Shown here: piece after piece, positions 11,383-28,911 of the stretch
Layout of the letters: each line of letters begins with the position of its first letter
Position numbering within the stretch: the first letter of the stretch is position 1
DNA from: a virus
Lineage: Duplodnaviria; Caudoviricetes
Strand: one strand, 5' to 3'
Length of the DNA stretch: 64,000 nucleotides
IMG/VR virus record: IMGVR_UViG_3300021387_000661
Location: 224,001-288,000 of that record
Position numbers and translations under genes: made by a program
Notes under the pieces: model-generated
What the model saw: only the letters and a program-made list of their open reading frames with translations
Databases searched by the model: none
Told to the model about the DNA's origin: nothing

Positions 11383-11427
11383 TTTACATAAATACTTTAG
11401 AAAGTCAAAAATCAATTTACATAAATA
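11383..11427 (+). promoter_or_regulatory. Tandem TTTACATAAATA boxes (T4-late-promoter-like) ahead of leader 1
   Basis: Two copies here and two at 18651-18687; resembles TATAAATA. Confidence 0.6.
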
Positions 11428-11431
11428 TAGT

Positions 11432-11503
11432 ATGATGACATTAAATAACATATCAAATAGGAAATCCGATTTAAGAAAATTGGATTCTTTTGGTGTGGTA
11501 TAA
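11432..11503 (+). CDS. Leader peptide 1 (MMTLNNISNRKSDLRKLDSFGVV)
   Basis: 23-codon uORF forming a long hairpin; its 3' end is complementary to the downstream terminator arm. Confidence 0.75.
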   Translation: MMTLNNISNRKSDLRKLDSFGVV

Positions 11504-11531
11504 TGTCAATAAGATAACAAGCATATCATCT

Positions 11532-11567
11532 AAAACCACACCTTTGAAAAAAGATGTGGTTTTTTTT
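11532..11567 (+). terminator. Attenuator terminator 1
   Basis: AAAACCACACCTT / AAGATGTGGTTTT stem followed by T-run. Confidence 0.8.
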
Positions 11568-11576
11568 GATAAAATA

Positions 11577-11608
11577 TTTGGAAGTTTAAAAAAAAGTTGT
11601 TATATTTG
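11577..11608 (+). promoter_or_regulatory. Bacteroidota primary-sigma promoter (-33 TTTG, -7 TATATTTG); further copies near 15010, 17255, 19374, 24785, 47308, 50490, 57182, 59480, 62021
   Basis: Matches the Bacteroides TTTG / TAnnTTTG consensus at about 20-nt spacing, always intergenic. Confidence 0.85.
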
Positions 11609-11757
11609 TAGTGTTGAAAGTTCATTAAAATAAAGCCAATCCGCCCAGTCGGAAAAGTAAGATTATGGAAACATCCATGTGGGATGGTTTACGAATCATC
11701 AACACCGTCGATTCGGGACTTCTGAAATAAAAAAGTGGTACTTGACTTAAATTGATT

Positions 11758-11830
11758 GCAACCTTGGCGCAGTGGCTAGCGCAACTGACTTTTAATCAGT
11801 GGGTCTCGGGTTCGAATCCCGAAGGTTGCA
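11758..11830 (+). tRNA. tRNA-Lys(TTT)
   Basis: Cloverleaf; ACTGA ctTTTaa TCAGT. Confidence 0.92.
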
Positions 11831-12027
11831 CACAAAACATAAATTTATTTTGATATTTGAAAAATTTATGTTATATTTGTAATACACGTACCCAGGTTGA
11901 GATAAATTTTGCAAGAATTTATAATATAATTACTGATTCCCTGGGTTTTAAAATCCACAATGGCAGATGCGCACAGTCCCGGAGTGGTTGAGTGAGGAGG
12001 ACTTGCAATAACCTCCAAACAAAAGGA

Positions 12028-12103
12028 AGTCTTGTAGTTTAATGGTAGAATGCCTGCCTCGAAAGCAGGAGATGGATGCAGGGTTCGAATCCCCCCAAGA
12101 CAA
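12028..12103 (+). tRNA. Atypical tRNA, anticodon CGA (Ser-like)
   Basis: CCTGC ctCGAaa GCAGG; GGTTCGAATCC; first pair mismatched, odd variable region. Confidence 0.6.
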
Positions 12104-12127
12104 CAAAGTTAGTTCATTGAAAATATT

Positions 12128-12293
12128 GCCCTGGTGGTGGAATGGTAGACACGAGGGACTTAATTAGCAGAGTAAACTGTCTTAAAAAATCTTGTTTGGA
12201 AAATATAGGAACTTTGACAGGTTCAAATCCTGTTTCCAGACCAATCCCTTGGCCTGCAAGGCCTTGCGGGTTCGACTCCCGCCCGGGGCACCA
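12128..12293 (+). tRNA. tRNA-Leu(TAA) interrupted by 79-nt insert (12164-12242)
   Basis: Leu-type D and variable arms; removing the insert gives AGGGA ctTAAaa TCCCT; encoded CCA. Confidence 0.85.
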
Positions 12294-12355
12294 ACATAGT
12301 TGATTCTGACTGTTGTCAGACTTGAGGTTAATGACAGGACCTTCAACTATTAAAT

Positions 12356-12434
12356 GCGGGTGTATCGCCACTGTCTTATACACAGTCATTAACAGCGTAA
12401 TTGGTGTATGGGGGTTCAAGTCCCTCCACCCGTA
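12356..12434 (+). tRNA. D-armless tRNA-Ile(TAT) with long variable region
   Basis: GCGGGTG/CACCCGT acceptor; ACTGT ctTATac ACAGT; normal T arm. Confidence 0.7.
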
Positions 12435-12629
12435 CAAGCTTATTTGAAACAGCACTGGTACAAGGATCCATACCAGTAAAGATGAGATGGTAGCGCTGAA
12501 GTCTACGAACCTTAACAGGAAGTATCCGGATTCAAACTCCTGTCCTGTGTTACGGAACCAGTCTGGGTCACCAGGGTTTAATTGGGATGGAAACACCCAA
12601 GGAAGAGAAACCACCTTATGCTGTTATAT

Positions 12630-12701
12630 GCTTCCATAGGTCAACGGATAGACTGACTCTCCCCTAAAGAGTAGATACATGTTCAATTCATGTTGGGAGT
12701 A
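12630..12701 (+). tRNA. tRNA-Arg(CCT)
   Basis: ACTCT ccCCTaa AGAGT (C33). Confidence 0.8.
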
Positions 12702-12713
12702 CAAAACATAAAT

Positions 12714-12787
12714 GGCCCCTTAGCTCAGCGGATCAGAGCAACAGCCTTCTAAGCTGTGGGTCCTGCGTTCGAATCGCAGAGGGGTCA
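12714..12787 (+). tRNA. tRNA-Arg(TCT)
   Basis: ACAGC ctTCTaa GCTGT. Confidence 0.92.
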
Positions 12788-12807
12788 CAAAAAAAGTTTA
12801 AAAGATA

Positions 12808-12834
12808 ATGAGACAGTATAAACATAAACAGTAG
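12808..12834 (+). CDS. Leader peptide 3 (MRQYKHKQ) upstream of two tRNA-Lys(TTT)
   Basis: A-rich initiation context, two AAA codons, followed by mutually exclusive helices. Confidence 0.6.
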   Translation: MRQYKHKQ

Positions 12835-12885
12835 TTGTGTTGGTATCATCCAGAAAGATGAGACCAACCAAGTCATATATGGAAA

Positions 12886-12960
12886 GGTCTCGTGGCGCAA
12901 CTGGATGAGCGCACCTGTCTTTTAAACAGGGTGTTATGGGTTCGAGTCCCATCGGGACCA
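12886..12960 (+). tRNA. tRNA-Lys(TTT)
   Basis: CCTGT ctTTTaa ACAGG. Confidence 0.9.
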
Positions 12961-12969
12961 CAAGGTATT

Positions 12970-13042
12970 GGCCTTGTAGCTTAGATGGTAGAGCACCACC
13001 CTTTTAAGGTGGGAGTCGTGGGTTCGAGCCCCACCGGGGTCA
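12970..13042 (+). tRNA. tRNA-Lys(TTT)
   Basis: CCACC ctTTTaa GGTGG. Confidence 0.9.
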
Positions 13043-13267
13043 CAAAGATTAAAGTTTGAAATATATGGGTGGCTTGCATGCAGTTCTTGATAAGTCAGAT
13101 ATAGTACTTACTGATACTGTCTTGAACCAGAGTAAAAAGACCGGTACCTGATTGCAATAAGTTCCCACCCACCCTTTACCTGACAGGTCGAGCGTGATAT
13201 GGTCGCCTGTATTCACCAGACGTGGAGAAGAGACATTGAAACTCTGTCAGGTTTTTAATAGATTATT

Positions 13268-13624
13268 ATGGAAAAGAAACCAAAGATAAAGTGGAAGAAT
13301 TTTAAAATCTGGATCAAAGACCAGTTCAAGAGGAAGACCTGGTTCAGAAACTTTTTCATCACTGGGAATGCCTGGGGAGGGTTCAGTATCAACTCTCACA
13401 TCAACCAACATACAGGTGAACCAAAGATAACATACAATCATCTTGAATCCGCCCAGAAGGCTGCTGACAAGATGGGACAGAAACACAACACACACTTCAG
13501 TGTTTACAAGTGTCTTTACTGTGATGGTTATCATATTGGAAAGAACAGGGAGAACAAGACAGATTATGACAAGAAGGTAGTTACAAATGTTGAAGTAAAA
13601 GACAAGACTTTAATACTTAAATAA
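13268..13624 (+). CDS. Hypothetical basic protein with YKCxxCxGYHIG zinc motif
   Basis: ORF translation. Confidence 0.7.
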   Translation: MEKKPKIKWKNFKIWIKDQFKRKTWFRNFFITGNAWGGFSINSHINQHTGEPKITYNHLESAQKAADKMGQKHNTHFSVYKCLYCDGYHIGKNRENKTDYDKKVVTNVEVKDKTLILK

Positions 13625-13625
13625 G

Positions 13626-14078
13626 ATGAACACACTTGAAAATACAATTCAGAAGGATCTGGTTCAGGCAATGAAGAACCATCAGGAACACACTGTTGCA
13701 GCATTGAGGTCTGTTAAGACTGCCATTATGGAAGTGAAGACCGCTGCCAATGGTAAGAAGGATTTGGAAGATGGTGACATTGTGAAGATCATCCAGAAGT
13801 TAGTTAAGCAAAGGAAGGAGAGTATGGACATCTATTCCCAGGCAGGTAGGCATGAACTTGCAGACAATGAGCAGCAGGAGATGTTTGTGTTGATGAACTA
13901 TCTTCCAAAGATGCTCACTGAATCAGAGGTGGAGGAAATTGTTGTGAAGACGATCGCAGACCTTGGTGCAACCTCAATGAAAGATATGGGAAAGGTGATG
14001 GGATTCATCAATAAGACTTATGCTGGACAGGTGGATGGTTCTATGGTATCAAGAATTGTTAAATCTAAATTAGGATAA
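13626..14078 (+). CDS. yqeY: GatB/YqeY domain protein
   Basis: AMK..LRSVK, KLVKQRKES..Y..AGR.ELA..E, YLPK, DMGKVMG. Confidence 0.9.
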   Translation: MNTLENTIQKDLVQAMKNHQEHTVAALRSVKTAIMEVKTAANGKKDLEDGDIVKIIQKLVKQRKESMDIYSQAGRHELADNEQQEMFVLMNYLPKMLTESEVEEIVVKTIADLGATSMKDMGKVMGFINKTYAGQVDGSMVSRIVKSKLG

Positions 14079-14491
14079 TATGGCAAAGTTTGTTGTTTAT
14101 GCTCATGACAAGACTGATGTAGAATCAAATCTCATCTATGTATGTACCTGTGACACCAAAAATATGGCAAAGAGTATTACAAGTGCTATGAGGTTCAGGG
14201 ATTCCGGTGGAAGGAATGATGGGTCGGGTTTATATGATTATTATGTTAGAAAAGAAGATTGGATAGTATGAAAACCTGGATTATAGTTTTAGCAATTGTA
14301 TTTGTTGTTTTAAAGTTAGTTCAGCGGTTTCTTGCAAACTATATCAGAAATGACAGATTGGAAAGTGTAAAATACTACTTTCTTGATGGTGCAACAACAC
14401 TTGGGGTGATACATGGACTTGTTTCTTTATTTTGTATATTGGTTGGTTGTACAGATTTGATTTTATTGTTTATTTATTTGTTGAATTTAGT

Positions 14492-14983
14492 ATGAAGAAT
14501 ATAGCATTGGTTGCCCATGATGGAAGAAAGAAAGAATTGATGGAGTGGGTAAGGTATAATTGGGAAACTCTTTCAAAGCATAATTTATATGCAACTGGTA
14601 CAACTGGAAAATTGATTAGTGGTATTGAAGTGGATCTTGGATTTGGTGGTGGAGAAGGAGTTTATAGGAGACAGATTGAGTATCCTTTGAGGAGTAAAGT
14701 AACATGTCTCAAATCTGGTCCACTTGGTGGAGATCAACAGATTGGAGCAATGATTGCAGAAGGAAAGATAGATGTATTGATATTTTTCTGTGACAATCTC
14801 ATTACACAAGGTCACCAGACAGATGTGTCTGCACTTACCAGACTTGCATCACTTTATAATATTGCATTTGCAACAAACAGGACAACTGCTGATATGATTC
14901 TTACATCACCATTGTTCAATGATGAAAATTATAAGATGATTGTTCCTGATGTGATTGAGAAATATAAAAACAGACAAATTTAA
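14492..14983 (+). CDS. mgsA: Methylglyoxal synthase
   Basis: IALVAHD, ATGTTG, SGPLGGDQQIG, H.TDV.AL.R, ATN.TAD. Confidence 0.95.
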   Translation: MKNIALVAHDGRKKELMEWVRYNWETLSKHNLYATGTTGKLISGIEVDLGFGGGEGVYRRQIEYPLRSKVTCLKSGPLGGDQQIGAMIAEGKIDVLIFFCDNLITQGHQTDVSALTRLASLYNIAFATNRTTADMILTSPLFNDENYKMIVPDVIEKYKNRQI

Positions 14984-15083
14984 TAAAAACATAAATATTT
15001 TTATCTGGGATTTGGAAAATAAAATATTTTTTGTTATATTTGTATTGTTATTCAGAAAGAGTTCTTTGAATTTAGAAATATAT

Positions 15084-15420
15084 AGGTCTTGTTGATGCTT
15101 TCAGGAAAGACTGTAGGACAAGGGTTCGAGTCCCTTCAGGTCCACAAATAAACACACTTAAGTCATCGGAGTACGCCTCTGTAATGATTGAGGAATTCAC
15201 TAAACGGTGTGGAAAATCAGGTTGAGTAGGCTTCGTATCTCAACCAACTTTGGGCCTGCCTGGTTTTGACTGCTTTTGAGTATGGAGAGTGGAGAGGTCT
15301 ATTGCCAATAACTGGCAAAAACAACGGTTTCTCTGTAAACTTTGGCCCTGTCGCACAGACAGCTACTCCAAAGGCTATGGTTGCTTTCGCTTAATTGCAG
15401 GCTTGAACATAGTAGATCTT
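15084..15420 (+). ncRNA. ssrA: Circularly permuted (two-piece) tmRNA; tag frame 15314-15394
   Basis: T-arm/acceptor 3' strand (GGAC..GGGTTCGAGTCCC..CAGGTCCA, ends 15144) precedes the 5' strand GGGCCTG..TTTTGAC (15252); G3.U70; resume context ATAACT-GGC; outer ends approximate. Confidence 0.85.
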
Positions 15421-15505
15421 TCACCAGGTGGATGATCCAGAGGGTTTCTCATTCCATCTTTCCAAATAAGATGGATACTTTGAAAGTTCTTTATAATAAA
15501 TATTT

Positions 15506-15681
15506 GGCCAGGTAGCTCAGCTGGTTTAGAGCAGCGGACTGTATAAGGAGTGGTTTACCGAAACAAACCAATCTGGTATAGTTTAATGGCAAAATGCCTC
15601 GGGTCGTAGATGATGGTGGTTCGATTCCACCTACCAGATCTAATCCGCGGGTCGTGGGTTCGAGTCCCTCCCTGGCCGCCA
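15506..15681 (+). tRNA. tRNA-Asn(GTT) interrupted by 98-nt insert (15543-15640) containing a tRNA-like fold
   Basis: Removing the insert gives GCGGA ctGTTaa TCCGC; G73; CCA. Confidence 0.85.
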
Positions 15682-15683
15682 AA

Positions 15684-15763
15684 GTACATAGGATGTAAGT
15701 GCACACATATGTTGGGTTCGGGTATGATTAACCCACAGAGGTTTGAGTCCTCTCTATGTACCA
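15684..15763 (+). ncRNA. tRNA-like RNA without a canonical anticodon loop
   Basis: GTACATAG/CTATGTAC stem, T-arm AGAGG tttgagt CCTCT. Confidence 0.5.
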
Positions 15764-15800
15764 AATATAAGTTCTTTGAAAAATAAAAACTTCATACAAT

Positions 15801-16071
15801 GGAGGAGTGGGAGAGTGGTTTATTCCAGCGGTCTTGTTAATTCGAGTGCTTCCAGAGGAATCTGGAAAGTAGAATTCCCCTAATTCGGTGGAACCTTAAC
15901 AGGTAATGCTGATGGTAATACCGAGCCAATGTTTAAAGACAGTGTGTAGAGACTTTACAGGGAACATCCAGAACGGATGAAGATAAAGTCCAGACCACAA
16001 TATGAAAGTAATGTGTGTAAGGAAAACCGCCGCTCCGAAAGGGGCCGTCGGTTCGAATCCGGCCTCCTCCG
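15801..16071 (+). tRNA. tRNA-Ser(TGA) with group I intron
   Basis: Spliced loop GCGGT ctTGAaa ACCGC; long variable arm; G73. Confidence 0.88.
15836..16021 (+). mobile_element. Group I intron (IC3-like, ORF-less, 186 nt)
   Basis: 5' exon ends in U, intron ends in G; P/Q/R/S-like AATTCGGTGGAAC, AATACCGAGC, GTAGAGACT, AAGATAAAGTCC. Confidence 0.88.
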
Positions 16072-16137
16072 CTAAATATACAAATTTCAAAAAAGTTTGT
16101 TATATTTATTAAGGTTTTGTTATGTGTTTGTTTGTTT

Positions 16138-16203
16138 AAAGATTCATACCGCAACAATTAAAAGCTCAAACTGATAATTTGATTACTTTCTTTTGAATCT
16201 TGT
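16138..16203 (+). repeat. AAAGAnnCATACCGCAACA...nnTCTTGT hairpin element (second copy 18481-18546)
   Basis: Two copies with compensatory closing stems (AAGATTC/GAATCTT; AAGAACC/GGTTCTT). Confidence 0.7.
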
Positions 16204-16259
16204 TTTCTTTAACAAACATAAATTTAACCAGGCTTTTATAAACAATTAATAATTAAAGT

Positions 16260-16886
16260 ATGAAGAAATTTTTAGTATTTCTTATGAGTATTATGCTCAT
16301 GATTGGTGTGAGTGCATGTACTTGCTCCCAGCAGAAGAAAACTTCTGAACTAAAGGCTGGTGAACTGGTTGTTGAGAATGTCATCTCCCTTGACCGTCAG
16401 GCAATGAACCTTGCACATGGTGGTAATTACAGGTGGTTTGAGACTGGTGTTCAGCTCAAGAACTTCCTTGATGAGGAAAATGATGGTACCATTGATTTGG
16501 TTGTCAATGTTTTCCAGGTAGTTGAGGAGTATGATTCTACAAGTTTTGATACCTTTGTTTACAAGTATCAGCACTTCTCTGATGGTTCATTTAATGAGGA
16601 AGGTGTTCATGGTTTCTGGGTTGAAGATTACCCTCTTGAGAATGAAGCAATCAAGGTAACCTTCAAGGAAGCTTTTGAAAAGGTCCAGGAAGTTAATCTC
16701 CCTAAACCTCACACCCGTCAGGTAGTATTGAGGAAGCAGGTTGGTCCTGTTGAGGCAAATCCTCAGTGGATTTTTGGTAACCTCCATTCACAGATTTATG
16801 TTGATGCTGTGACTGGTGCAGTTTCAAAGGACAATCCTGCATTCAATGGTCTCAATCTTGGTACACCTCTTGGTGAATGGCCTTAA
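16260..16886 (+). CDS. Putative lipoprotein
   Basis: Hydrophobic signal peptide with lipobox-like VSAC. Confidence 0.7.
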   Translation: MKKFLVFLMSIMLMIGVSACTCSQQKKTSELKAGELVVENVISLDRQAMNLAHGGNYRWFETGVQLKNFLDEENDGTIDLVVNVFQVVEEYDSTSFDTFVYKYQHFSDGSFNEEGVHGFWVEDYPLENEAIKVTFKEAFEKVQEVNLPKPHTRQVVLRKQVGPVEANPQWIFGNLHSQIYVDAVTGAVSKDNPAFNGLNLGTPLGEWP

Positions 16887-17097
16887 TAGAAATCGGTGAG
16901 GTAGTTAGTTTTGCACTCTCGTCATAAATAAAATGCAGACTTGGCAATCTGGAACAGACAGATATTACTATGATGTGACAAGGAAGTGGAATACTTGCGC
17001 CACGAGATAATATCAGATGGAGGAAAGAGGAAGGGTTCTTCGTAAAAGTTGCCCAATAGGGAATGGAGGTTCGAGTCCTCCCATCATAGCCAAACAT

Positions 17098-17172
17098 TGC
17101 GGGGTAGACTGGAGAGGTTCCAGCCCGGTCTCATAAGCCGGTCCACGTGGGTTCGAATCCCACCCACCGCTA
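17098..17172 (+). tRNA. tRNA-Met(CAT), initiator-like
   Basis: CCGGT ctCATaa GCCGG; 1:72 mismatch. Confidence 0.82.
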
Positions 17173-17321
17173 CTAAATGCCAGTATAAGACAGTATATAT
17201 GTAAGTTCAACTCTTACTATTGGCGCAAAAAAATACAAAATATTTTCATAAATATTTGGATATTTCAAATTTTTTTGTTATATTTGTATTGTTAAGTTCT
17301 TTGATAAATATTGTAAAAATA

Positions 17322-18395
17322 TAAGGGTGGGTTTCTCATCCTTCCTGTATCCTTCGGGAGAAAGGAGAAAGATAACCAGTGAATACATAAGCTGGGAAAG
17401 TCAGTGTGGCGCAATCTTGCCCCTGGCGGAGGAGTTTTCCTCTCTACAAGAAAACCAAGGCAGTCAGCATATCCTGGAATGGCAGGACACTGTGAAAGGG
17501 ATATGCGGGGGTTCTTACCAAGTCTCCTTGAGTGGTAACACTGACAAGTGCTGTTTTGCTTCCAGACAAGAAGATTACCAGTCTTATGGTTTGGATGACC
17601 AAAGTTTATTGATGTCCAAAAGGAATTACCAGATTCCTCTAACAGGTGGTGCTGAGATCAGAAATGGTTGGATGTTAGAATGAGTAGAATGAGTAACACA
17701 GCGGTGTGTGAAAATAGAAAGGCGATGTATCTAACCCTCTCAAAAGGAGGCAGGATAGCAAGGGCAACCTCGTCTTTCAAATGGTAGAGTGCTAAATGAT
17801 TCATTAAAGATTATGACCAAAATGATCAATAAAAAATTATTAAGCAAGCAAAAGTGTTGCCCACACTACAGGACAATATGGTTATGCTTCTGTGATATGA
17901 AGCCTTATGGAACTCGCAAGGTGAAGTAAGAGTATTGTAAGTAGGGACAATGCAAGAGGAGGCATCCTCTTAACTCGGCAGAGGTCTTTGGCTTGAACAC
18001 ATCTATATAATGTAGTGTAGTGACTGTGGTAGTCTTGGTGGAAACACCATAAATCCATCCATATCCTCCTTACCAGTAGCGATGCTGGTGTGTATAAACT
18101 CTGGGCGACCAGGGCTTGTCCTGAAAGGGAAGAGAACAGGAGGCGATTAGGGTCAACACTCAGCCCCAATCAAACAAAAATTTATTCAGTGTCAGTAACC
18201 AGTCTGGTATGGAAGAGCGAGACTTCCCCGAATAACAAAAGTCATTTCATAAAGGTACAGAACCTCTGCGAAATAGAACCACAAGGAGGGTTTTCCAAGG
18301 CCAGGGACTTGACTTGAAACATACTTTCTTGGGTTCTAAAGGAAGTTGAAGAGTGAGTTTGCATTCAGTCTATGAGTGGTTTTATCTCTTCATCC
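17322..18395 (+). ncRNA. Large structured ncRNA (about 1.07 kb), possibly GOLLD-like
   Basis: No credible ORF, raised GC, many short hairpins, own promoter plus boxA, abuts tRNA-Asp; family assigned from size and context only. Confidence 0.5.
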
Positions 18396-18397
18396 AT

Positions 18398-18472
18398 AGT
18401 GCGTTAGTTCAGCCTGGTTAGAATGCCACACTGTCACTGTGGAGGTCACGGGTCCGAATCCCGTACGCACTG
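18398..18472 (+). tRNA. tRNA-Asp(GTC)
   Basis: CCACA ctGTCac TGTGG. Confidence 0.92.
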
Positions 18473-18706
18473 CAAATGGTAAAGAACCATACCGCAACAT
18501 TTGAATGAAATACATTTTTGGGTTATGTAGCAATTTTGGTTCTTGTTTTTCCTTGTTTAGCAAAACAAGGTGGTGGAGTTGGGTGGAAACACTGTCCTCT
18601 GTGAGTGGTAATCTCACATAAATAACTTACCATTTATTTTGAAATTTTAATTTACATAAATATATTAGAAAGTAATTTACATAAATACTTTAAAAGAATA
18701 AAAATT

Positions 18707-18829
18707 ATGATGACATTGCATACACATATGGTATTTGCTGCTATTGCAGGTAAGCCAGGTTGCTACCGTTTTTGGGAACAACTCGGACAGAAGGGTGTGT
18801 GTATGTCATCTGAAAATGAAAAACAATAA
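18707..18829 (+). CDS. Leader peptide 2 (MMTLHTHMVFAAIAGKPGCYRFWEQLGQKGVCMSSENEKQ)
   Basis: 40-codon uORF; same ATG ATG ACA TT start and tandem upstream boxes as leader 1; alternative helices with the terminator. Confidence 0.75.
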   Translation: MMTLHTHMVFAAIAGKPGCYRFWEQLGQKGVCMSSENEKQ

Positions 18830-18883
18830 GTGGAGACCATTATAGGAGAAAGGTTAAAACTTAAACAAATATAGAAGAACGAC

Positions 18884-18923
18884 ATCTCACACAAATCACA
18901 AAAAGGTTTATGTGAGATTTTTT
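18884..18923 (+). terminator. Attenuator terminator 2
   Basis: ATCTCACA...TGTGAGAT stem plus T-run, 10 nt before tRNA-Pro. Confidence 0.78.
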
Positions 18924-18932
18924 AATTTATAT

Positions 18933-19008
18933 TGGGTAGTGCGGTAGTTGGTCACCGGCTGCATTTGGGATGCAGACATTCACGCAGGTTCGAGTCCTGT
19001 CTACCCAA
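18933..19008 (+). tRNA. tRNA-Pro(TGG)
   Basis: CTGCA ttTGGga TGCAG. Confidence 0.88.
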
Positions 19009-19018
19009 CAAAGTGAAT

Positions 19019-19093
19019 GGGCTGGGTAGTGTAATCTGGAAGCACATCACTCTGGCAGAGTGAAGGATGGGGTTCAAATCCCCCCTGTGTCCA
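19019..19093 (+). tRNA. tRNA-Ala(GGC), non-canonical acceptor stem
   Basis: TCACT ctGGCag AGTGA; G3.U70. Confidence 0.7.
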
Positions 19094-19115
19094 CAAAGAT
19101 AATAAAACAAAGTTT

Positions 19116-20022: not shown

Positions 20023-20182
20023 CTTGATGTAAAAAGACGTTAAACCTTGTGGGAGTTAGTCTTCTCCCTTGTGGGATAATGGTGCCGGCATCATAGTAGA
20101 TTGCCAAGGAAACTGCCCGAGTCAGCGGGGTCTGAACAGTGGGGTTCGATACCCTGGGCACCATCAAAAAAGTTCTTTGATT

Positions 20183-20255
20183 GTCTCTGTAGCTCAATTG
20201 GTAGAGCACCTGACTCTTAATCAGGGGGTTCCGAGTTCGAGCCTCGGCAGGGACA
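20183..20255 (+). tRNA. tRNA-Lys(CTT)
   Basis: CCTGA ctCTTaa TCAGG. Confidence 0.92.
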
Positions 20256-20430
20256 CAAAACAAATGCCGGTTTATCACAGTATATTGGTGACTGTGGCTG
20301 CCCTGTACAGGTGGGTTTGACTTCAAGTGAAAGTATACAGCTCGAGACAATGTATATGAGTAAAGGTCAGATATGGGTTTGGTTCGATTCCCCCGATGGC
20401 ACAAAGTTCTTTGAATTGTTATATTTAAAT

Positions 20431-20507
20431 GGGCCGGGTAGTGTAAAGGTTTAGCACGTCACACTTGCACTGTGACAGAGGGGTTCGAATCCCACCTGTG
20501 TCCACCA
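20431..20507 (+). tRNA. tRNA-Ala(TGC), non-canonical acceptor stem
   Basis: TCACA ctTGCac TGTGA; G3.U70; CCA. Confidence 0.72.
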
Positions 20508-20608
20508 CTTATTACCATATTATCTTTCAGAGAAATGGTTGACTAAAACTCGCAGACTCATCCGGTAATTGGTTGTAAAAGTGCAGTTAAAGGTTAGATG
20601 AGTATTTT

Positions 20609-20682
20609 GGGCTTGCATGTACCAAGGTTGGCGGAACTCCCTTGCAAGGAGATCGTGGAGGGTTCGATTCCCTTCGGGTCCA
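20609..20682 (+). tRNA. tRNA-Ala(TGC), atypical D region
   Basis: CTCC ctTGCaa GGAG; G3.U70. Confidence 0.7.
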
Positions 20683-21118
20683 CAAAACAGGTGAAGTTGT
20701 CATACATATAAGCCTGTTTCACAAGTTCAGAAGGTGATGCATACACACTGACTTGTCGGCATATGAGAGTGTCGGAGACACACAGAAGTGGAAACCACAT
20801 TCAGGATTGAATTGAAGTGCAAATAGATTCTTTCTGTTAGGATGAAGGTCTGCCGGACACAAAGCTCGCCAGGAAGATTACCCTGGAAATACTTGGTTCG
20901 ACTCCAAGATATGCTACAAAATCACAGAGTGCCCAGAGCATTGAAGCATTGAAGGTATGATGCTTTTGAACAAGTTTGAACCCTGTAATCGAAAGAGGGC
21001 AATGCAGCAAGCAATACTTTGTGAGATAACAACTTTTCTATGGTATCATATAGAGGTTAGTATGGCGGTCATTCAGTGCTGCAACAGAGGTTCGATTCCT
21101 CTTACCATAGCAACATTT

Positions 21119-21210
21119 GGGTAGGTAACGGCGCTGGACTGTAAATCCAGTCTGAACACAAATTGTCGTATTGGCCTTGCAGTAAGGGGGTTCGAGTCCC
21201 TCCCTACCCA
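21119..21210 (+). tRNA. D-armless tRNA-Tyr(GTA) with long variable region
   Basis: GGGTAGG/CCTACCC; CTGGA ctGTAaa TCCAG. Confidence 0.7.
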
Positions 21211-21217
21211 CACAAAT

Positions 21218-21291
21218 GCGGAGTTAGTTCAACGGTAGAATGTCAGCCTTCCAAGCTGAATATGAGGGTTCGATTCCCTTACTCCGCTCCA
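21218..21291 (+). tRNA. tRNA-Gly(TCC)
   Basis: TCAGC ctTCCaa GCTGA; U73; CCA. Confidence 0.92.
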
Positions 21292-21376
21292 AACTGTGGG
21301 TGTAGTGTAATATTATAGATTCAGCACACAGGGGATACCCTGGAATGATGGTATGAAATCCATCCACTCATAACAT

Positions 21377-21451
21377 ACCGATGTAGCTCAGTTGGTGGAG
21401 AGCGACAGATTCATATCCTGTAGGTCATTGGTTCGAACCCAATCATCGGTA
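21377..21451 (+). tRNA. tRNA with CAT anticodon (Met or Ile2)
   Basis: ACAG a-ttCATat-c CTGT. Confidence 0.8.
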
Positions 21452-21464
21452 CATATAATTAAAA

Positions 21465-21635
21465 ATGATATTATGGATAACTGTGGGGCTAAAAGAGTAT
21501 CTGTTTAATGAGTGGAAATATAATGTACACAAAAGATACTTGAAATACTTTGATGAATGGTATGACAATCTTCTGGATTCCCAGAAAGAATTTTACAAGA
21601 GTTGGATGGAAGGGTATATGAGTCCATATCATTAG
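21465..21635 (+). CDS. Small hypothetical protein (56 aa, below ORF-track cut-off)
   Basis: MILWITVGLKEYLFNEWKYN...SPYH fills the gap between tRNAs. Confidence 0.55.
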   Translation: MILWITVGLKEYLFNEWKYNVHKRYLKYFDEWYDNLLDSQKEFYKSWMEGYMSPYH

Positions 21636-21664
21636 GTCTTTGAAATGTTGATTATGAATTATAT

Positions 21665-21755
21665 AGGTCGGTGGCCGAGTGGTTGAAGGCGGCGGTCTCC
21701 AAAACCGTTAGGATATTTTGAAAAATCCTCGAGGGTTCGAATCCTTCCCGGCCTG
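21665..21755 (+). tRNA. tRNA with CCA anticodon (Trp) and long variable arm
   Basis: GCGGT ctCCAaa ACCGT; AGGAT..ATCCT variable hairpin; G73. Confidence 0.8.
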
Positions 21756-21763
21756 CTTAAGAT

Positions 21764-21835
21764 TGAGGTATGGTGTAATGGCCAGCACCTTGGATTTTGG
21801 TTCCAATAGTCCAGGTTCGAATCCTGGTACCTCAA
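21764..21835 (+). tRNA. tRNA-Gln(TTG)
   Basis: TTGGA ttTTGgt TCCAA. Confidence 0.9.
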
Positions 21836-21843
21836 CAAAAAAT

Positions 21844-21917
21844 GTCGGGTTGGCCGAGCGGTCAGGTCCTGGTCTGCAAAACCAGTTAGATTGGTTCGAC
21901 TCCAATACCCGACTCCA
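21844..21917 (+). tRNA. tRNA-Cys(GCA)
   Basis: CTGGT ctGCAaa ACCAG; U73; CCA. Confidence 0.92.
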
Positions 21918-21920
21918 TTT

Positions 21921-21992
21921 GCCCCTGTAGTGTAATGGATCGCACACAGCACTACGGATGCTTTAGAGAGGGTTCGAGTCCTTCCAGGGGTA
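21921..21992 (+). tRNA. tRNA-Arg(ACG)
   Basis: AGCA ctACGga TGCT. Confidence 0.88.
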
Positions 21993-22113
21993 CAAAATTA
22001 TAAATATAATAGATGGTCTTTGACGAAAGAATCGTATCGCAGTTGAGCTTTGTCCTCACTGACAGAAACGTAAGTCTGGGGTGTACTACAAGCCTGTGAT
22101 TGTAGTATTTTTT

Positions 22114-22185
22114 GCGGCATTCGTATAATGGTTATTATACCAGCTTGCCATGCTGGGGACGGGAGTTCGATTCTCCCATGCCGCT
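22114..22185 (+). tRNA. tRNA-Gly(GCC)
   Basis: CCAGC ttGCCat GCTGG. Confidence 0.9.
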
Positions 22186-22193
22186 CTCAATAT

Positions 22194-22270
22194 GGTGACT
22201 GTGGCCGAGTGGTTTAGGCGCAACACTGTGGATGTTGTTTACGTCAGTTCGAGTCTGACCAGTCACCCCA
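22194..22270 (+). tRNA. tRNA-His(GTG) with encoded G-1
   Basis: CAACA ctGTGga TGTTG; G-1:C73; CCA. Confidence 0.92.
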
Positions 22271-22280
22271 AAAATAAAGT

Positions 22281-22988
22281 TATGGAAAAGGTAGTAAGAT
22301 TTTTTAAACAAGATAATAAGTGGTATGCAGATATTCCAAACCACACTCTTGAAGAGAATGAGATGGTAATGGGTGCAGATATTGCTCTTGAGTATCTTGC
22401 AGAAGAGAGGAAAGAGTTACACATCACATTCACAGATGAGAATCCAGGATGGAATGTTCCTCTGGCACTCACTCTGAAAGATCATGATGATGAGGGTGGA
22501 TACTATGATGTATCAGGAATTCTCTTTATGGATTTTATGCTCACTTATGGTAAAGAGTTCATTGGAGTCAAACCACAGGTTTGGATTTGTAATGTTACAC
22601 ATGATGTATTTGGTGAACATCCAGAACACATTTACATCACAAAGATTGAATCAAAACATTAGTTATGGACAAAGATTTTAAGAAGAGGTTCTTAATGAAC
22701 CGTGATGAGACAGGTAGGTTCATTGTCAAGTCAATGAAGACTGGTAAATCCTATTATGTTGAAGCAATTGATGGTGACGAAAGGACTATCTGGGGAGATG
22801 TGGATCCAGTAACAAAAAAGTTGACAGGTAGTTATGGTGACAAGTACAAGGGAAGTATCAGACCTGAACAGTCACTTATTACCAATGAGAATGGGTTTGA
22901 CAAGATTCATACTCTTGGTCCTGGGGAATCACCATTGGATTATATTAACAGGATTGATGATGAGTACTTTGAAAAGATGAGTAAATAG
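22281..22988 (+). CDS. Two hypothetical proteins (22281-22662, 22665-22988)
   Basis: First ORF most likely starts at MEKVVRFF, after tRNA-His. Confidence 0.65.
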
Positions 22989-22996
22989 TTTTTTGG

Positions 22997-23078
22997 GGGA
23001 GAGTCGCATAGTGGCAATTGCAAGGGACTGTAAATCCCTCGCCTTCGGGCTTCAGAGGTTCGAGTCCTCTCTCTCCCA
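22997..23078 (+). tRNA. tRNA-Tyr(GTA)
   Basis: AGGGA ctGTAaa TCCCT; long variable arm. Confidence 0.92.
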
Positions 23079-23193
23079 CAGCCTATCAACCAAGTTGTTG
23101 AAAAGGGTAACGGATGCGCAGCGATTGCGGATCTTGCAAGTTTTTCGCCAGGGTTTCCTTGGTCTCTTTGAGATGAATAAATCTTGGATTTAT

Positions 23194-23275
23194 GGGGGTG
23201 TGGTGGAATGTAGACACCCCAGACTTAGGATCTGGTGCCAGTAATGGCGTGAGGGTTCGAGTCCCTCCATCCCCA
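23194..23275 (+). tRNA. tRNA-Leu(TAG)
   Basis: CCAGA ctTAGga TCTGG. Confidence 0.9.
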
Positions 23276-23410
23276 CACTGACACTACTCTATGAGTAGAT
23301 GTCTTGGTTGGTCACAATACTGTAATTGTGATAGTCCTCTGGGACTTAAAAGAGTTGCAGTGATGCAATCTGTCAAGGTCAGTCTGGAACCAGTTAATCC
23401 AGACATTTAT

Positions 23411-23493
23411 GCAGCAGTGGTGGAATGGTAGACACGCTACTTTGAGGGGGTAGTCTGGGCAACTGGGTGTGAGTTCGAGTCTCACCTGCCGCA
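23411..23493 (+). tRNA. tRNA-Leu(GAG)
   Basis: CTACT ttGAGgg GGTAG. Confidence 0.88.
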
Positions 23494-23501
23494 CAAAACA
23501 T

Positions 23502-23574
23502 AGCGGTATAGCGCAATTGATAGAGCATCAGATTCTGGCTCTGAAGGTTGGGAGTTTGAACCTCTCTACCGCTA
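23502..23574 (+). tRNA. tRNA-Gln(CTG)
   Basis: TCAGA ttCTGgc TCTGA. Confidence 0.8.
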
Positions 23575-23676
23575 CAAACAAAAAAGGGTGGGTCAACCAG
23601 GTAAAGGCAGGGTAAGTCTCTGGTTCTTCTCTGATGATGGCGCAAGTAGTCAGAGTTTCTTAAATTACCCATATAT

Positions 23677-23751
23677 GGGTGTGTAACTCAGTTGGTACAG
23701 AGTACCTGTCTGATACACAGGAAGTCGATGGTTCAAGTCCATCCACACCCA
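23677..23751 (+). tRNA. tRNA-Ile(GAT)
   Basis: CCTGT ctGATac ACAGG. Confidence 0.88.
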
Positions 23752-23760
23752 CACAAATAT

Positions 23761-23835
23761 GGTCCTGTCGTCTAGTCTGGCCAAGGACATCACCCTCTCA
23801 AGGTGGAGACCCGGGTTCAAATCCCAGTGGGACTA
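23761..23835 (+). tRNA. tRNA-Glu(CTC)
   Basis: TCACC ctCTCaa GGTGG. Confidence 0.88.
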
Positions 23836-24400
23836 CAAAAAATATTTCAAATTTATTTTGAAATTAAAAATATTTTTGTTATATTTGTATTACAAAAAAG
23901 TTCATTGACATATAATAAGTGATGACTACATAGACATAATCAATGCCACAATGTTGAGCTCTTGAGAATATGGCAGATAAAAGTCTTTAGACAAACTCAA
24001 CTATGGTCATCACTAAATTATAAGAACAGCAAGATGGGGTACTGATAATCTTCACACAAGGAGTTCTAGATTGAGGGTGTGTGAAGGAAAGGTATAAATA
24101 TTGTTAAAGAGGAATACCTGACCCCTGTCCAATTGTGGCAAGTGGAGAAATATGGATTGTCTATCTGGGGTTCTCCTGTCCTCTGACAACAGTGACTACG
24201 GAAGTCTGTTGTGTTCTTTTATTATATTGAGAATCCAAGGTGGGTGCTTTTATAGAATACTCTCTTAAAATGGATAGAGAGGAAAGAAGTGTAATATAGG
24301 TGAAGTTTCTTAGTTGTTACACATCCTGGTGATGGGGAATGTCATCACGGTGAGACTTCAAGAAGGTGACTACGGAAATCCTTTTGTTCTCAATTTCTAT

Positions 24401-24483
24401 GCCCGAGTGGGGGAATGGTAGACCCAGCAGACTCAAAATCTGCCGTCTGCAAAGACGTGCGAGTTCGACTCTCGCCTCGGGCA
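24401..24483 (+). tRNA. tRNA-Leu(CAA)
   Basis: GCAGA ctCAAaa TCTGC. Confidence 0.92.
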
Positions 24484-24849
24484 CAACAGTCCATCCAGTA
24501 TTGAGGATAAGGTAAACTTGAAAGTACAGGAAAATTCACCTTGTTCAGCGGTTGCCGATACGCAATATATAAGGACCACACAAGTAGTACATTGCAGTTG
24601 AAACATTACCCGACATAGAGACTACATAAGAAATGTGCTTTATTGGATTTGAGACTGTAAAAGAAGGGTGAAGTACAAACCCTGTTCAGTTATGATGGAA
24701 TAACCAAAGTCCAATGGCAGGGAGGGATATAATGGTGTGAAGTTGCTATTCACCATATTTAAAATTAAAAAAAGATAAAACAAATTTGGATAATTCAAAA
24801 AAAGTTGTTATCTTTGTATTGAAAGTTCATTGATATTTGTTGTTTTATA

Positions 24850-25445
24850 TTTGGAAAGTTTCTGACCTGGATTAAACCCTCATTATTGGTAGGGGAATTA
24901 AGGGACTAAACCCAACCACAAGATAATGTCCTGATGTGACAGAAGTCCTGTAGTTTTTATCTCTGTGGGTAGGTTGGCTTTGTATAATAATACCACAGCA
25001 GAAATAAGTTTCTGGTCTTAAACAATCCATACGTTTTATGATGGGGTTCGTAAACCTAACCATTCGCATCTTTTGGAAAGATGTGTTACCGTGCCGTGAA
25101 ATTCGGAGGAGTCAATTCCACAGACCAACAGAAAGAATGTACACATTGCTTACAGTTGGTCAGTGCTGTGCCCACCCAGCGAGGTTGTTATGCAGTTTAT
25201 CAACAGGGTGTGGGAAAAGTGTATGAGAGAAGACTGAATGTTCCTGGACAATGGTGTTGGAATCTGGGATAAAACAAAGAGTAGGTTGGATCAAGAAGAG
25301 AACTGGTAGGAGTTACTGTGACTTTCTGATGTTTGTCCATCAGAAAACCAGGGAAGATAATGGACACCAATATGGCAAGAGATTTTTGATAGGGATTCAC
25401 AAATCAGTGAGGTGGCCATGCACCTATGACAACACTGATTTACTT
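24850..25445 (+). ncRNA. Large structured ncRNA (about 600 nt), possibly ROOL-like
   Basis: No credible ORF; many hairpins; own promoter and boxA; abuts tRNA-Glu; family assigned from size and context only. Confidence 0.45.
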
Positions 25446-25447
25446 AT

Positions 25448-25519
25448 GGCGGGTTCGTCTATCGGTGAGGACACCAGATTTTCATTCTGGGAAGAGGAGT
25501 TCGATTCTCCTACCCGCTA
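25448..25519 (+). tRNA. tRNA-Glu(TTC)
   Basis: CCAGA ttTTCat TCTGG. Confidence 0.9.
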
Positions 25520-25639
25520 CAAATAAAAGTTGAAATGGAAGAAGAGTAACATTCCATATCCACTTAATGATTGAGTTTGTAAGAAAGTACTTTGAGACTG
25601 ATGCTTCCTACTGTACAGATTTCAACTTTTTTAGAAAAT

Positions 25640-25743
25640 TGCGGGGGAGTGAAACGGATAGGAACTCCTGAAAGGGTTGTTCAAAAATCATATCAGGCCC
25701 ATAACCTGATGATACTGGCTTCGACTGCCAGACCCGCTACCAA
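25640..25743 (+). tRNA. tRNA-Met(CAT)-like with a hairpin inserted in the D loop
   Basis: TCAGG ccCATaa CCTGA; T arm CTGGC/GCCAG; CCA. Confidence 0.62.
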
Positions 25744-25769
25744 GTATTAATTTAAAAATAGGTTTAACA

Positions 25770-25910
25770 ATGGCAGTTATTAAGACAGGTTCAACCTCAA
25801 GGAGAGAGGTGAAACACAAGAAGCGCCCTGGTATTGTCTCCAAGTGTAAGACTTCAAGGAACAAGAATTCCAAGCACTATGTGAAACCTTACAGAGGTCA
25901 GGGCCGATAA
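25770..25910 (+). CDS. Small basic protein ending KPYRGQGR (46 aa)
   Basis: MAVIKTGSTSRREVKHKKRPGIVSKCKTSRNKNSKHYVKPYRGQGR; AT-rich leader. Confidence 0.7.
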   Translation: MAVIKTGSTSRREVKHKKRPGIVSKCKTSRNKNSKHYVKPYRGQGR

Positions 25911-26052
25911 AAATACAGGTTAGAAGGCGATGGTTATTCCATAATGGTTGTGTACAGACCGGTGGAGACCTTCTGTGAAAGTCAGACGTGAAAGTAAACG
26001 AAATGAGTTCTCAGGGCAGCTGTGCCGAAGGATTATAGAAAACAGCACTTAT

Positions 26053-26128
26053 CGGGGTGTAGCTCAGTTGGTAGAGCGGGTGGTTTGGGACCATCAGGTC
26101 GCACGTTCGAGTCGTGTCACCCCGACCA
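26053..26128 (+). tRNA. tRNA-Pro(TGG)
   Basis: GGTGG ttTGGga CCATC; CCA. Confidence 0.9.
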
Positions 26129-26325
26129 AAATATGGCCTGGTGGGCAAATGGTAAAGTCACCCCTGAATGATGGGGGAGGTGTGTAATAAGGGTTACCTG
26201 ACAGTGCGGAGTAACAGTGTCGCGAACTGCCAAAGGTTGGGTACAAGAATAAGCACAGGTCTGGAGGTATTCGCGATGCCAAAGGATGAATGCGGGTTCA
26301 ACTCCCGTTCGGGGCCACAAATTTT

Positions 26326-26400
26326 GGGAGGTTAGCTCAGTTGGGTCAGAGCATCTGGTTTACACCCAGAGGGTCATAGGTTCGAATCCTATATCTCCCA
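26326..26400 (+). tRNA. tRNA-Val(TAC)
   Basis: TCTGG ttTACac CCAGA. Confidence 0.92.
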
Positions 26401-26750
26401 CAAACAACTTTGAGTATGACAGTATATGATACATGTTAAAGGCTGGAGGAAAGAAGTTGTCAGAACCTATAGTGGTGAAGCAAAGGTGAGATTCCTTTGT
26501 GGAGAGTGGTCAAAACAATACCAGACGGTAGAGATGGGGAGTTCGAGTCTCCTTAGGTTCGCAAAGAGTGCAGTGTCAATCTCCCGTTGGGGCTGGGGTG
26601 AGACCTCTTAAAATAGAGTGAAAAAATGAATTAGCTCCACCAATACAGTTATTACTAATCTGTGAAAGTAATCGTCTTGAGTTGACGGTGATGGTTGAGT
26701 TTGAGGAAACGTTCCAGGTTCGAGTCCTGCAACCATAACAAAAAATACTT

Positions 26751-26905
26751 GCCGAGGTAGCTTTAATGGTAGAGCACCTGACTTCTACAGATTTATCCAC
26801 TGTGACGGATATTGGGTAATATGGGAGAAGAAGTCAACTTTTACGTCCGAAGCGTAAGTTATCCACGTAATCAGGGGGTTGCAGGTTCGACTCCTGTCCT
26901 CGGCT
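26751..26905 (+). tRNA. tRNA-Thr(TGT; CGT possible) interrupted by 82-nt insert (26785-26866)
   Basis: Removing the insert gives CCTGA ctTGTaa TCAGG; Thr-type GCC..GGC acceptor. Confidence 0.82.
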
Positions 26906-26960
26906 CAAACAAAGATTTTAGCCTGTTAGTTAAAATCTATATAAAATAACAATCAAATTT

Positions 26961-27581
26961 ATGTCAAAATTTATGAAAGAAGAAGACCGTGAGCAGCAGA
27001 TAAATGATTTGATGCTTGCAATTAGAAGGAACACACAGGGTTCCAAATGTATTGATGTTTTTGAAAATCTCTTGAGAGAGATTCCAGACAAGAATGTTGT
27101 AGATACAGTTATTGTTGATACACACCGTTTTATTACAGAGTTTTCCAGGTTGTGTAAAGATGTTGACAATATGAAAAATTTGGATTATATTGCCAGGATT
27201 CTTACATATGATTTCATTCAACCAAAAAGATATTTTTCAAAATCAAGGAAGAATGCACAATTGTATTTGATGATGAGTGATATGCTCACCACTAAATACA
27301 CACATCCAATCTTTGATGTTGAGAAAAAGATTCAACTTCCAAATGAAAATTTCATTGGGGATATTTATCATAAGGAGATTTTCTCTGCGAATGATATCGT
27401 AGAAGTATTTAAATACTTTGGAGATCTTTCTGGTTTGTCTGTTGAGAAAGTGAAGGAGAAGATGGAACTTGCAAGAAAGGTTGTCCTCCTTTACAATTAC
27501 CAACCTGCCATTGTGAAGGCACTCATCCAGACAAAGAGAAGGGGACTTAATCTGGATAAGAACTCAAAAATGTTTAAATAA
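26961..27581 (+). CDS. Hypothetical protein
   Basis: 206-aa ORF. Confidence 0.7.
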   Translation: MSKFMKEEDREQQINDLMLAIRRNTQGSKCIDVFENLLREIPDKNVVDTVIVDTHRFITEFSRLCKDVDNMKNLDYIARILTYDFIQPKRYFSKSRKNAQLYLMMSDMLTTKYTHPIFDVEKKIQLPNENFIGDIYHKEIFSANDIVEVFKYFGDLSGLSVEKVKEKMELARKVVLLYNYQPAIVKALIQTKRRGLNLDKNSKMFK

Positions 27582-27654
27582 TTAACAAACAATCAACTAA
27601 CAGGCAAAATTTTTGTTATATTTACATAAATAACCTAATGTTATTTGGAATAAT

Positions 27655-27727
27655 GGGGGATTAGCTTAGTTGGTAGAGCGCAGCCTTTGCACGGCTGAGG
27701 TCAGGGGTTCGAATCCCCTATCCTCCA
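27655..27727 (+). tRNA. tRNA-Ala(TGC), canonical
   Basis: CAGCC ttTGCac GGCTG; G3.U70. Confidence 0.93.
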
Positions 27728-27752
27728 CAAAATTGAGTTCTTTATATTCTAT

Positions 27753-27904
27753 GCCGGAGTAGCTTTAATGGTAGAGCATCTGACTTCTACAGAGTGGTTT
27801 CTGAAATAAACCTTGGGTAGAATGGGAGAATGATTATACAAACGTCCGAAGCGTTATCTACTCACGTAATCAGAGGGTTGTCGGTCCGAATCCGGCCTCC
27901 GGCT
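27753..27904 (+). tRNA. tRNA-Thr(TGT; CGT possible) interrupted by 79-nt insert (27787-27865)
   Basis: Removing the insert gives TCTGA ctTGTaa TCAGA. Confidence 0.82.
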
Positions 27905-28888: not shown

Positions 28889-28911
28889 TATAAATTTAAA
28901 AAGAAAAAGTT

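Follow-up and report, generated by a model that had tools for sequence, protein, structure and literature searches.

The 64,000-nucleotide window analysed here comprises bases 224001-288000 of the 344,746-base IMG/VR virus record IMGVR_UViG_3300021387_000661, a 345-kb rumen phage (G000; 35% G+C, about 94% complete). It carries about 45 tRNA-like genes, all on the plus strand and spanning positions 11758-31110 of the window. Two blocks of these genes are each preceded by a cassette composed of promoter-like boxes, a short leader open reading frame (ORF) and an intrinsic terminator (Table 1). The cassettes are a real, conserved and statistically robust feature. Both are found at the same places of the syntenic tRNA arrays of two other giant phages, G001 and G002, and the second leader was recovered as 22 distinct ORFs in metagenomes. 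The 5' part of each leader is written almost entirely in codons that are read by the tRNAs of the block behind it. The reading that we favour, as moderately probable on the sequence evidence, is that the two cassettes are ribosome-mediated (leader-peptide) transcription attenuators that would feed tRNA supply back onto tRNA transcription.

Codon partition between the two leaders

Codons were assigned to anticodons by standard wobble rules. Those read only by block-1 tRNAs represent 29.7% of the phage codons and those read only by block-2 tRNAs 59.3%. Leader 1 includes a run of 16 codons (codons 4-19) that contains no block-2-only codon and covers all 8 assigned block-1 anticodons. Such a run was observed neither in 82,127 windows of 23 codons taken from phage genes (maximum 14) nor in 20,000 mononucleotide shuffles; these preserve base composition, which rules out the A-richness of leader 1 as the cause of the match. 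Leader 2 contains no block-1-only codon within codons 1-33 and covers 21 of the 24 block-2 anticodons, a combination of run and coverage found in 0 of the 82,127 gene windows. Block-1 codons are used freely in its last 7 codons. An explanation by composition is also ruled out by this second leader: third-position A is common in it, and AAA never occurs before region 2 in this phage. Among the 2,733 small ORFs of the genome only the two leaders reach both marks. Taken together, 44 of the 47 leader codons are read by their own block, a value that none of 100,000 random re-partitions of the 33 anticodons equals. The match between leader codons and block anticodons, proposed in an initial sequence-only reading of this region along with a permutation test of it, is therefore upheld.

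The partition is also maintained in the relatives. In all three versions of leader 1, each of the 8 block-1 anticodons is still represented by one codon although amino acids have changed, the replacements that relocate these codons being Asn/Asp, Lys/Arg and Arg/Asn. In the 22 leader-2 ORFs, block-1-only codons account for 8 of 645 codons before region 2 (the 3' segment of the ORF engaged in alternative pairing, see below) and for 61 of 109 after it. When only the split codon families are considered, the ratio of block-1 to block-2 type is 1:146 before region 2 and 48:5 after. Upstream of region 2, Lys is encoded by AAG in 39 of 40 cases and Arg by CGT or CGC in all 22, although CGT represents 7% of the Arg codons of the genome; ATA is absent for Ile and TTA for Leu, and Ser is encoded by AGT or AGC. 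The leader sequences share ancestry and are therefore not independent trials. Nonetheless, the contrast within a single molecule, together with replacements that stay inside the permitted set, indicates that codon identity is under continuing selection.

Alternative RNA secondary structures

Folding confirmed the anatomy expected of both cassettes, that is, alternative 1:2, 2:3 and 3:4 helices and intrinsic terminators. It also proved correct that the two ORFs start alike: they open with 11 identical bases, at 11432 and 18707. Free leader-1 RNA folds as 1:2 plus 3:4 in all three phages. With the 5' part masked and region 4 still to be transcribed, helix 2:3 forms in all three as an 8-bp antiterminator (11492-11499/11535-11542). 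One pair of the outer part of leader-1 helix 1:2 is altered on both sides in G001, a compensatory change, and region 2 retains its nucleotides while the reading frame shifts between phages.

Free leader-2 RNA forms a 16-bp helix (18709-18725/18795-18810) plus the terminator, and regions 1 and 2 taken alone form a duplex of -22.6 kcal/mol. With the first 24-84 nt masked and the 3' arm of the terminator unmade, the minimum free energy (MFE) structure pairs 18795-18811 with 18876-18892. Pairing across 14 sequences amounts to 99% in the terminator, which is almost invariant, to 83% in helix 1:2 and to 85% in helix 2:3, the last as against at most 62% for slid partners. The changes within helix 2:3 include a U-A to C-G replacement in G002, which is cleanly compensatory, and an A-U to G-U replacement in two other sequences. 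The covariation score of this helix exceeds that of all 500 shuffles, although relatedness inflates the score.

No other hairpin-plus-T-run site in 21 kb is as strong as the two leader terminators. The latter were scored with a purpose-made scan for such sites, since a standard scan misses both because of bulges and loop size. The first gene of block 2, a tRNA-Pro (18933), begins 10 nt past the T run of leader 2 with no promoter between. Each cassette thus presents an intrinsic terminator between ORF and tRNA genes, mutually exclusive helices 2:3 and 1:2 with region 1 inside the ORF, and cognate candidate regulatory codons 5' of region 2, the latter in an unusual form with one codon per anticodon. 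A third cassette was considered at two weaker terminator-like sites (22108 and 25627) and rejected, neither having a box or an ORF.

Conservation of the leaders in relatives

The close relatives are metagenome-derived and many are apparently ruminal. A megablast of positions 9000-30000 against deposited phage genomes returned only short tRNA matches and no relatives, and pattern scans of IMG/VR for further cassettes identified G001 and G002 only. The other matches of these scans (L016-L020 and L044-L049) were discarded as chance matches in unrelated genes, as were five metagenome matches (L023, L026, L029, L038 and L043) lying in other frames of protein genes. The metagenome contigs that carry leader 2 begin inside block 1.

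In the leader-2 sequences, insertions and deletions 5' of region 2 all preserve the reading frame, their lengths being multiples of three, and many of the substitutions there leave the amino acid unchanged. A 13-residue core is near-invariant in the 22 ORFs while its codons vary synonymously. From region 2 onwards it is the nucleotides that are conserved while the frame shifts, as seen in leader 2 of the G001 type and at the 3' ends of the three leader-1 ORFs. Such a pattern would be expected of a 5' part that acts as codons and a 3' part that acts as RNA. Both ORFs, found here to be conserved in frame in three versions of leader 1 and 22 of leader 2, are under coding constraint in their 5' part, as in known attenuators. 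Co-variation of leader codons with array content is less clear: when the presence of tRNA-Ala-GGC after tRNA-Pro was compared with the GCY codons of leader 2, some contigs fitted and others did not.

Promoter-like boxes and host-type sites

The 12-nt box TTTACATAAATA is present at 11383, 11416, 18651 and 18676, with further copies at 27621 and 4869, the latter on the minus strand. With at most one mismatch, 9 matches were found and 1.3 are expected. Tandem boxes do precede both blocks, as first described. However, the motif is not special to the tRNA blocks and the tandem arrangement is not a hallmark of the cassette, most relatives carrying a single box. The distance from box to ORF in the relatives is 4-22 nt, and leader 2 is preceded in all of them by one or two boxes at 9-22 nt. 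The box is a variant of a genome-wide motif, TTT[T/A/C]CATAAATA (n=29 in the genome; in the window at 4869 on the minus strand, 27621 and 39327), which in 21 of the 29 cases is followed at 17-110 nt (mostly 22-33) by the ATG of an ORF of at least 60 codons. Many large genes have such a motif 17-33 nt in front of them, among them those for the tail sheath and the head maturation protease. The motif is often located just 3' of a hairpin with a T run and is often followed by a TATA-like element. It is similar to the core of T4 late promoters. The box is a candidate phage-specific promoter element, probably of late type, which one of the phage sigma factors may recognize. The genome encodes two sigma-70-like proteins (one gene at 290715 of the record, just beyond the end of the window), and no genes for RNA polymerase beta or beta' subunits were found in it. 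The phage therefore probably redirects the host polymerase, an enzyme that should obey intrinsic terminators.

A second kind of promoter-like site follows the Bacteroidota -33/-7 pattern (TTTG, 17-21 nt, TAnnTTTG). There are 16 such sites in the window, where 3.2 are expected, and 7 of them lie within the array (Table 1). Since they are located beyond the leader-1 terminator and inside the blocks, the attenuators would govern only the transcription that begins at the phage-type boxes. If the boxes are late promoters, the box-driven share could, as a conjecture, dominate late in infection.

Table 1. Coordinates of the cassettes, tRNA blocks and promoter-like sites (window positions)
Feature	Position	Strand	Remarks
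Leader-1 boxes (two, promoter-like)	11383-11394, 11416-11427	+	exact 12-nt motif
Leader-1 ORF	11432-11503	+	23 codons + stop
Leader-1 region 1	11436-11457	+	inside ORF; MFE fold in three phages
Leader-1 region 2	11489-11508	+	across stop codon; 8-nt core 11492-11499 complementary to 11535-11542
Leader-1 intrinsic terminator (3:4)	11533-11567	+	-11.2 kcal/mol; 8-T run
Host-type promoter-like site	11577-11608	+	between leader-1 terminator and first tRNA; in all three phages
tRNA block 1	11758-18473	+	Lys-TTT x3, 77-nt tRNA (CGA), Leu-TAA, Ile-TAT, Arg-CCT, Arg-TCT, permuted tmRNA, Asn-GTT, Ser-TGA, CAT tRNA, Asp-GTC, GOLLD-like RNA, small ORFs
Host-type promoter-like sites in block 1	11849, 15011, 17255	+	
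Leader-2 boxes (two, promoter-like)	18651-18662, 18676-18687	+	exact 12-nt motif
Leader-2 ORF	18707-18829	+	40 codons + stop
Leader-2 region 1	18709-18725	+	contains second AUG
Leader-2 region 2	18795-18811	+	alternative partners: region 1 or 18876-18892
Leader-2 region 3 and terminator	18876-18923	+	hairpin 18883-18919, -12.8 kcal/mol; T run 18918-18923 (6 T)
tRNA block 2	18933-27905	+	24 distinct anticodons: Pro, Ala, Glu, Phe, Leu (AAG, TAG, GAG, CAA), Lys-CTT, Gly, Met, Trp, Gln, Cys, Arg-ACG, His, Tyr, Ile-GAT, Val, Thr
Host-type promoter-like sites in block 2	19374-19405, 23857-23887, 24785-24816	+	
Terminator-like hairpin	27911-27946	+	array end; 9-T run; hairpin-plus-T-run scan

Proposed mechanism

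In the proposed mechanism, transcription would begin at a phage-type box, probably by the host RNA polymerase with a phage sigma factor, and the short leader ORF would come first on the RNA. Fast reading of the ORF would allow region 1 to re-pair with region 2, leaving the 3:4 terminator to form and transcription to stop before the tRNAs. A ribosome delayed in the 5' part would cover region 1, so that region 2 would pair with region 3 and the polymerase would continue into the tRNA block. Because the codons 5' of region 2 amount to approximately one per anticodon of the block behind, shortage of any tRNA listed there should raise transcription of the block that supplies it, and each cassette would constitute a negative-feedback loop on tRNA supply. 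From the sequence features described above we infer that the leader ORFs are translated in vivo, that ribosomes stall at single codons and that read-through varies with tRNA supply. In a simple model with a 28-nt ribosome footprint, the ribosome frees region 2 of leader 1 only when located at codons 1-13, and the codon inventory of this leader falls mostly within these codons.

Several observations weigh against this scheme. The full-length leader-2 RNA keeps the terminator in its MFE structure even when the 5' part is masked, so that helix 2:3 could win only kinetically. In the footprint model, the ribosome frees region 2 of leader 2 only at codons 1-9, and most of the one-of-each codons of this leader lie in the loop closed by helix 1:2. 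Since the inventory is mostly located beyond codon 9, its reading would need steric hindrance of the long-range helix or queued ribosomes. Moreover, one codon per tRNA means low sensitivity under classical attenuation theory (PMC1183508). The codon rule itself has exceptions. Four leader-2 variants have an Asn codon in third or fourth position, Asp and AAA codons occur singly elsewhere among the variants, and in this phage TCC of leader 1 has no block-1 tRNA that clearly reads it. In G001, leader 1 has CTC as its codon 4, which breaks the rule, although it forms part of the two-sided change that preserves helix 1:2. Leader 1 is known from three sequences only. In addition, its box 2 ends 4 nt 5' of the AUG, and a transcript begun from it would therefore be leaderless or without the start codon. 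Finally, a host-type site follows the leader-1 terminator in the three phages and six others lie inside the blocks, so that a large part of the expression of the array may be independent of the attenuators; in the strict sense, read-through of leader 2 is needed for Pro-TGG and Ala-GGC only.

The idea of a multiplexed stalling sensor, as put forward in the sequence-only reading, is consequently retained in part. All its sequence-level predictions held, namely ORFs conserved in frame, confinement of the block-specific codons to the part 5' of region 2, helices kept by compensatory changes and terminators that are the strongest of the region. The statement that loss of a listed tRNA switches on the block was too strong in view of the host-type sites, and the notion that any listed codon can act as trigger conflicts with the simple footprint model, in which the antiterminator of leader 2 is opened from codons 1-9 only.

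Alternative explanations

These difficulties bear on a related explanation, in which the attenuators report general translation capacity (ribosome availability, transcription-translation coupling or amino-acid starvation) rather than single tRNAs, codon choice being secondary or unrelated to sensing. The opening of the antiterminator from only the first 9-13 codons in the simple footprint model is consistent with it, as is the weakness of a sensor with one codon per tRNA (PMC1183508), and the burial of the start codons in helix 1:2 would allow the initiation rate to decide the outcome. We nevertheless consider it rather unlikely, because it leaves unexplained both the contrast in block-1 codons between the two sides of region 2 in leader 2 (8/645 versus 61/109) and the fact that leader 1, while its amino acids changed, has kept precisely the 8 anticodon types of block 1.

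The two other alternatives do without sensing of tRNA supply altogether. The ORFs could be ordinary small genes that specify micropeptides or small RNAs and have a promoter and a terminator of their own, the tRNA blocks being run from host-type promoters without any regulatory link. The central peptide segment of leader 2 is indeed highly conserved as amino acids, host-type promoter-like sites are present throughout the array and the box is a general phage promoter-like motif. This proposal is nonetheless improbable, and more so than the preceding one, given that region 2 is complementary to both the ORF start and the 5' arm of the terminator, with compensatory changes, that the 3' part of each ORF retains its nucleotides when the frame shifts, that tRNA-Pro directly follows the leader-2 terminator with no promoter between and that no model of protein function predicts a partition at the codon level. 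Alternatively, leader 2 could be a nascent-peptide arrest sensor of the TnaC, SecM or SpeFL type that responds to a ligand or to the ribosome state. A near-invariant core with synonymously variable codons is what an exit-tunnel peptide would show. However, the sole Pro, Cys, Tyr, Arg, Trp and Gln codons of the leader are located in this core, and the inventory model predicts the same conservation; leader 1 is without such a core, the codons selected for Lys, Arg, Ile, Leu and Ser are left unexplained, and a stall in the core would fall in the 1:2 loop, where the footprint model leaves helix 1:2 intact. We regard an arrest peptide as very unlikely. Attenuation responding to the supply of the listed tRNAs is the explanation favoured here.

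The tRNA array and other RNA elements

Block 1 is syntenic with the arrays of G001 and G002, and a Ser-GCT gene is located beyond block 2, at 31023. The list of tRNAs previously drawn up for the two blocks is correct, including three genes, all present, that ARAGORN overlooks with default settings. Leu-TAA (12128-12293) and Asn-GTT (15506-15681) have their anticodon loops interrupted by inserts of 79 and 98 nt respectively, and Ile-TAT (12356-12434) is atypical, with an Rfam tRNA score of 31.7 bits. Their counterparts stand at syntenic places in G001 and G002 and carry no inserts.

Anticodon-loop inserts of 79-186 nt are found in five tRNA genes: Leu-TAA, Asn-GTT, Ser-TGA (15801-16072) and two Thr-TGT (26751-26906 and 27753-27905). 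The relatives carry uninterrupted versions of some of them. The Leu-TAA and Asn-GTT inserts each end in a tRNA-like minihelix of acceptor and T-arm, and that of Asn-GTT contains an entire tRNA-like unit. As a guess, RNase P and RNase Z could excise the inserts, with subsequent ligation. Several tRNA-like genes are of ambiguous identity (12028-12104, 16969-17092, 17172-17235 and 15685-15763). Among these is the 77-nt tRNA with anticodon CGA (AGA in G002), which lacks the long variable arm typical of Ser tRNAs; others are minihelices reduced to an acceptor stem and T-arm.

Block 1 also includes a GOLLD-like RNA at 17717-18166 (Rfam RF02032, 87.6 bits, E 7.7e-22), which does not reach the gathering score of 150. 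It lies downstream of a one-mismatch box (17243) and a host-type promoter-like site (17255-17286), and the same arrangement is observed in the relative L064 (around 4893). The permuted tmRNA (15053-15485; ARAGORN tmRNA*) has a 26-residue tag that is near-identical in G001 and G002, and scores 41.7 bits with the Rfam permuted tmRNA model, under its gathering score of 47. A G-rich element of 26 nt (26580-26605) has exact or near-exact copies beside tRNA-like T-arms in several relatives and is also found 3' of tRNA-Pro in L021, L031, L037, L040 and G002. An Rfam search with this element gave no match at E<=1. It could belong to a small RNA that is mobile or processes itself.

Discussion

The enterobacterial leaders of ilvGMEDA (Ile, Leu and Val codons) and thr (Thr and Ile codons), like trpL, hisL, pheL and leuL, consist of a short translated ORF behind a promoter, and share with the phage cassettes the 1:2, 2:3 and 3:4 helices, the intrinsic terminator and the location of the regulatory codons 5' of region 2. 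The closest likeness is with the multivalent ilv and thr leaders, where several kinds of codon are read by one leader. The phage cassettes differ in being phage-borne and located behind a phage-type promoter motif, and in preceding tRNA genes, which they would regulate in place of biosynthetic enzymes. They contain approximately one codon each for 8 or about 21 anticodons, whereas the enterobacterial leaders carry runs of 2-7 codons for one to three amino acids. They also discriminate isoacceptors (AAA from AAG, AGR from CGY and ATA from ATT). What sets them apart from classical attenuators is the nature of the products (tRNAs), the number of inputs, the use of one codon per anticodon and the discrimination of isoacceptors.

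A component of the translation apparatus is already known to be controlled by the supply of its cognate charged tRNA through the pheM leader attenuator of E. coli pheST. That system differs in controlling a synthetase rather than tRNAs and in its specificity for a single amino acid. T-box riboswitches likewise convert tRNA status into a choice between terminator and antiterminator upstream of translation-related genes. However, they bind uncharged tRNA directly and without translation, whereas in the phage cassettes the translated ORF would be the conserved sensor. No T-box or other Rfam family was detected in 11383-11570 or 18650-18925 at E<=1. A full-text literature search found no description of attenuation of tRNA genes or of their control by a leader peptide.

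Lys-TTT, which is present in block 1, is a classical nuclease target. Phage-encoded tRNAs replace depleted or cleaved host tRNAs and in this way counter tRNA-targeting defences (PMC10264068, PMC11464382). These studies deal with the tRNAs themselves, to which the phage cassettes would add control by a leader peptide. The codon inventories may represent a general and so far undescribed on-demand control of tRNA genes in large phages, tuned to the near-total loss of one tRNA and serving as sensor and actuator of counter-defence and host adaptation, a wider proposal that we hold to be possible rather than probable. Such a loss could stem from cleavage by a host anticodon nuclease or from the absence of the tRNA in a new host. 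A connection with anticodon nucleases is plausible, if purely inferential, since a single codon would respond best when a tRNA is almost entirely lost.

The reasons for which phages carry tRNAs, and the use they make of them, have been debated for decades. If the attenuator reading is true, phages would be shown to regulate their tRNA supply actively through feedback on the speed of decoding, codon by codon, and classical attenuation would extend to a new class of genes and to many-input sensing at the level of isoacceptors. Defences that target tRNAs and the counter-measures of phages would also become linked in a way that can be tested directly. In that case the leaders would constitute a sequence signature by which such control may be recognized in uncultured phages, as well as compact parts for the construction of sensors of tRNA availability.

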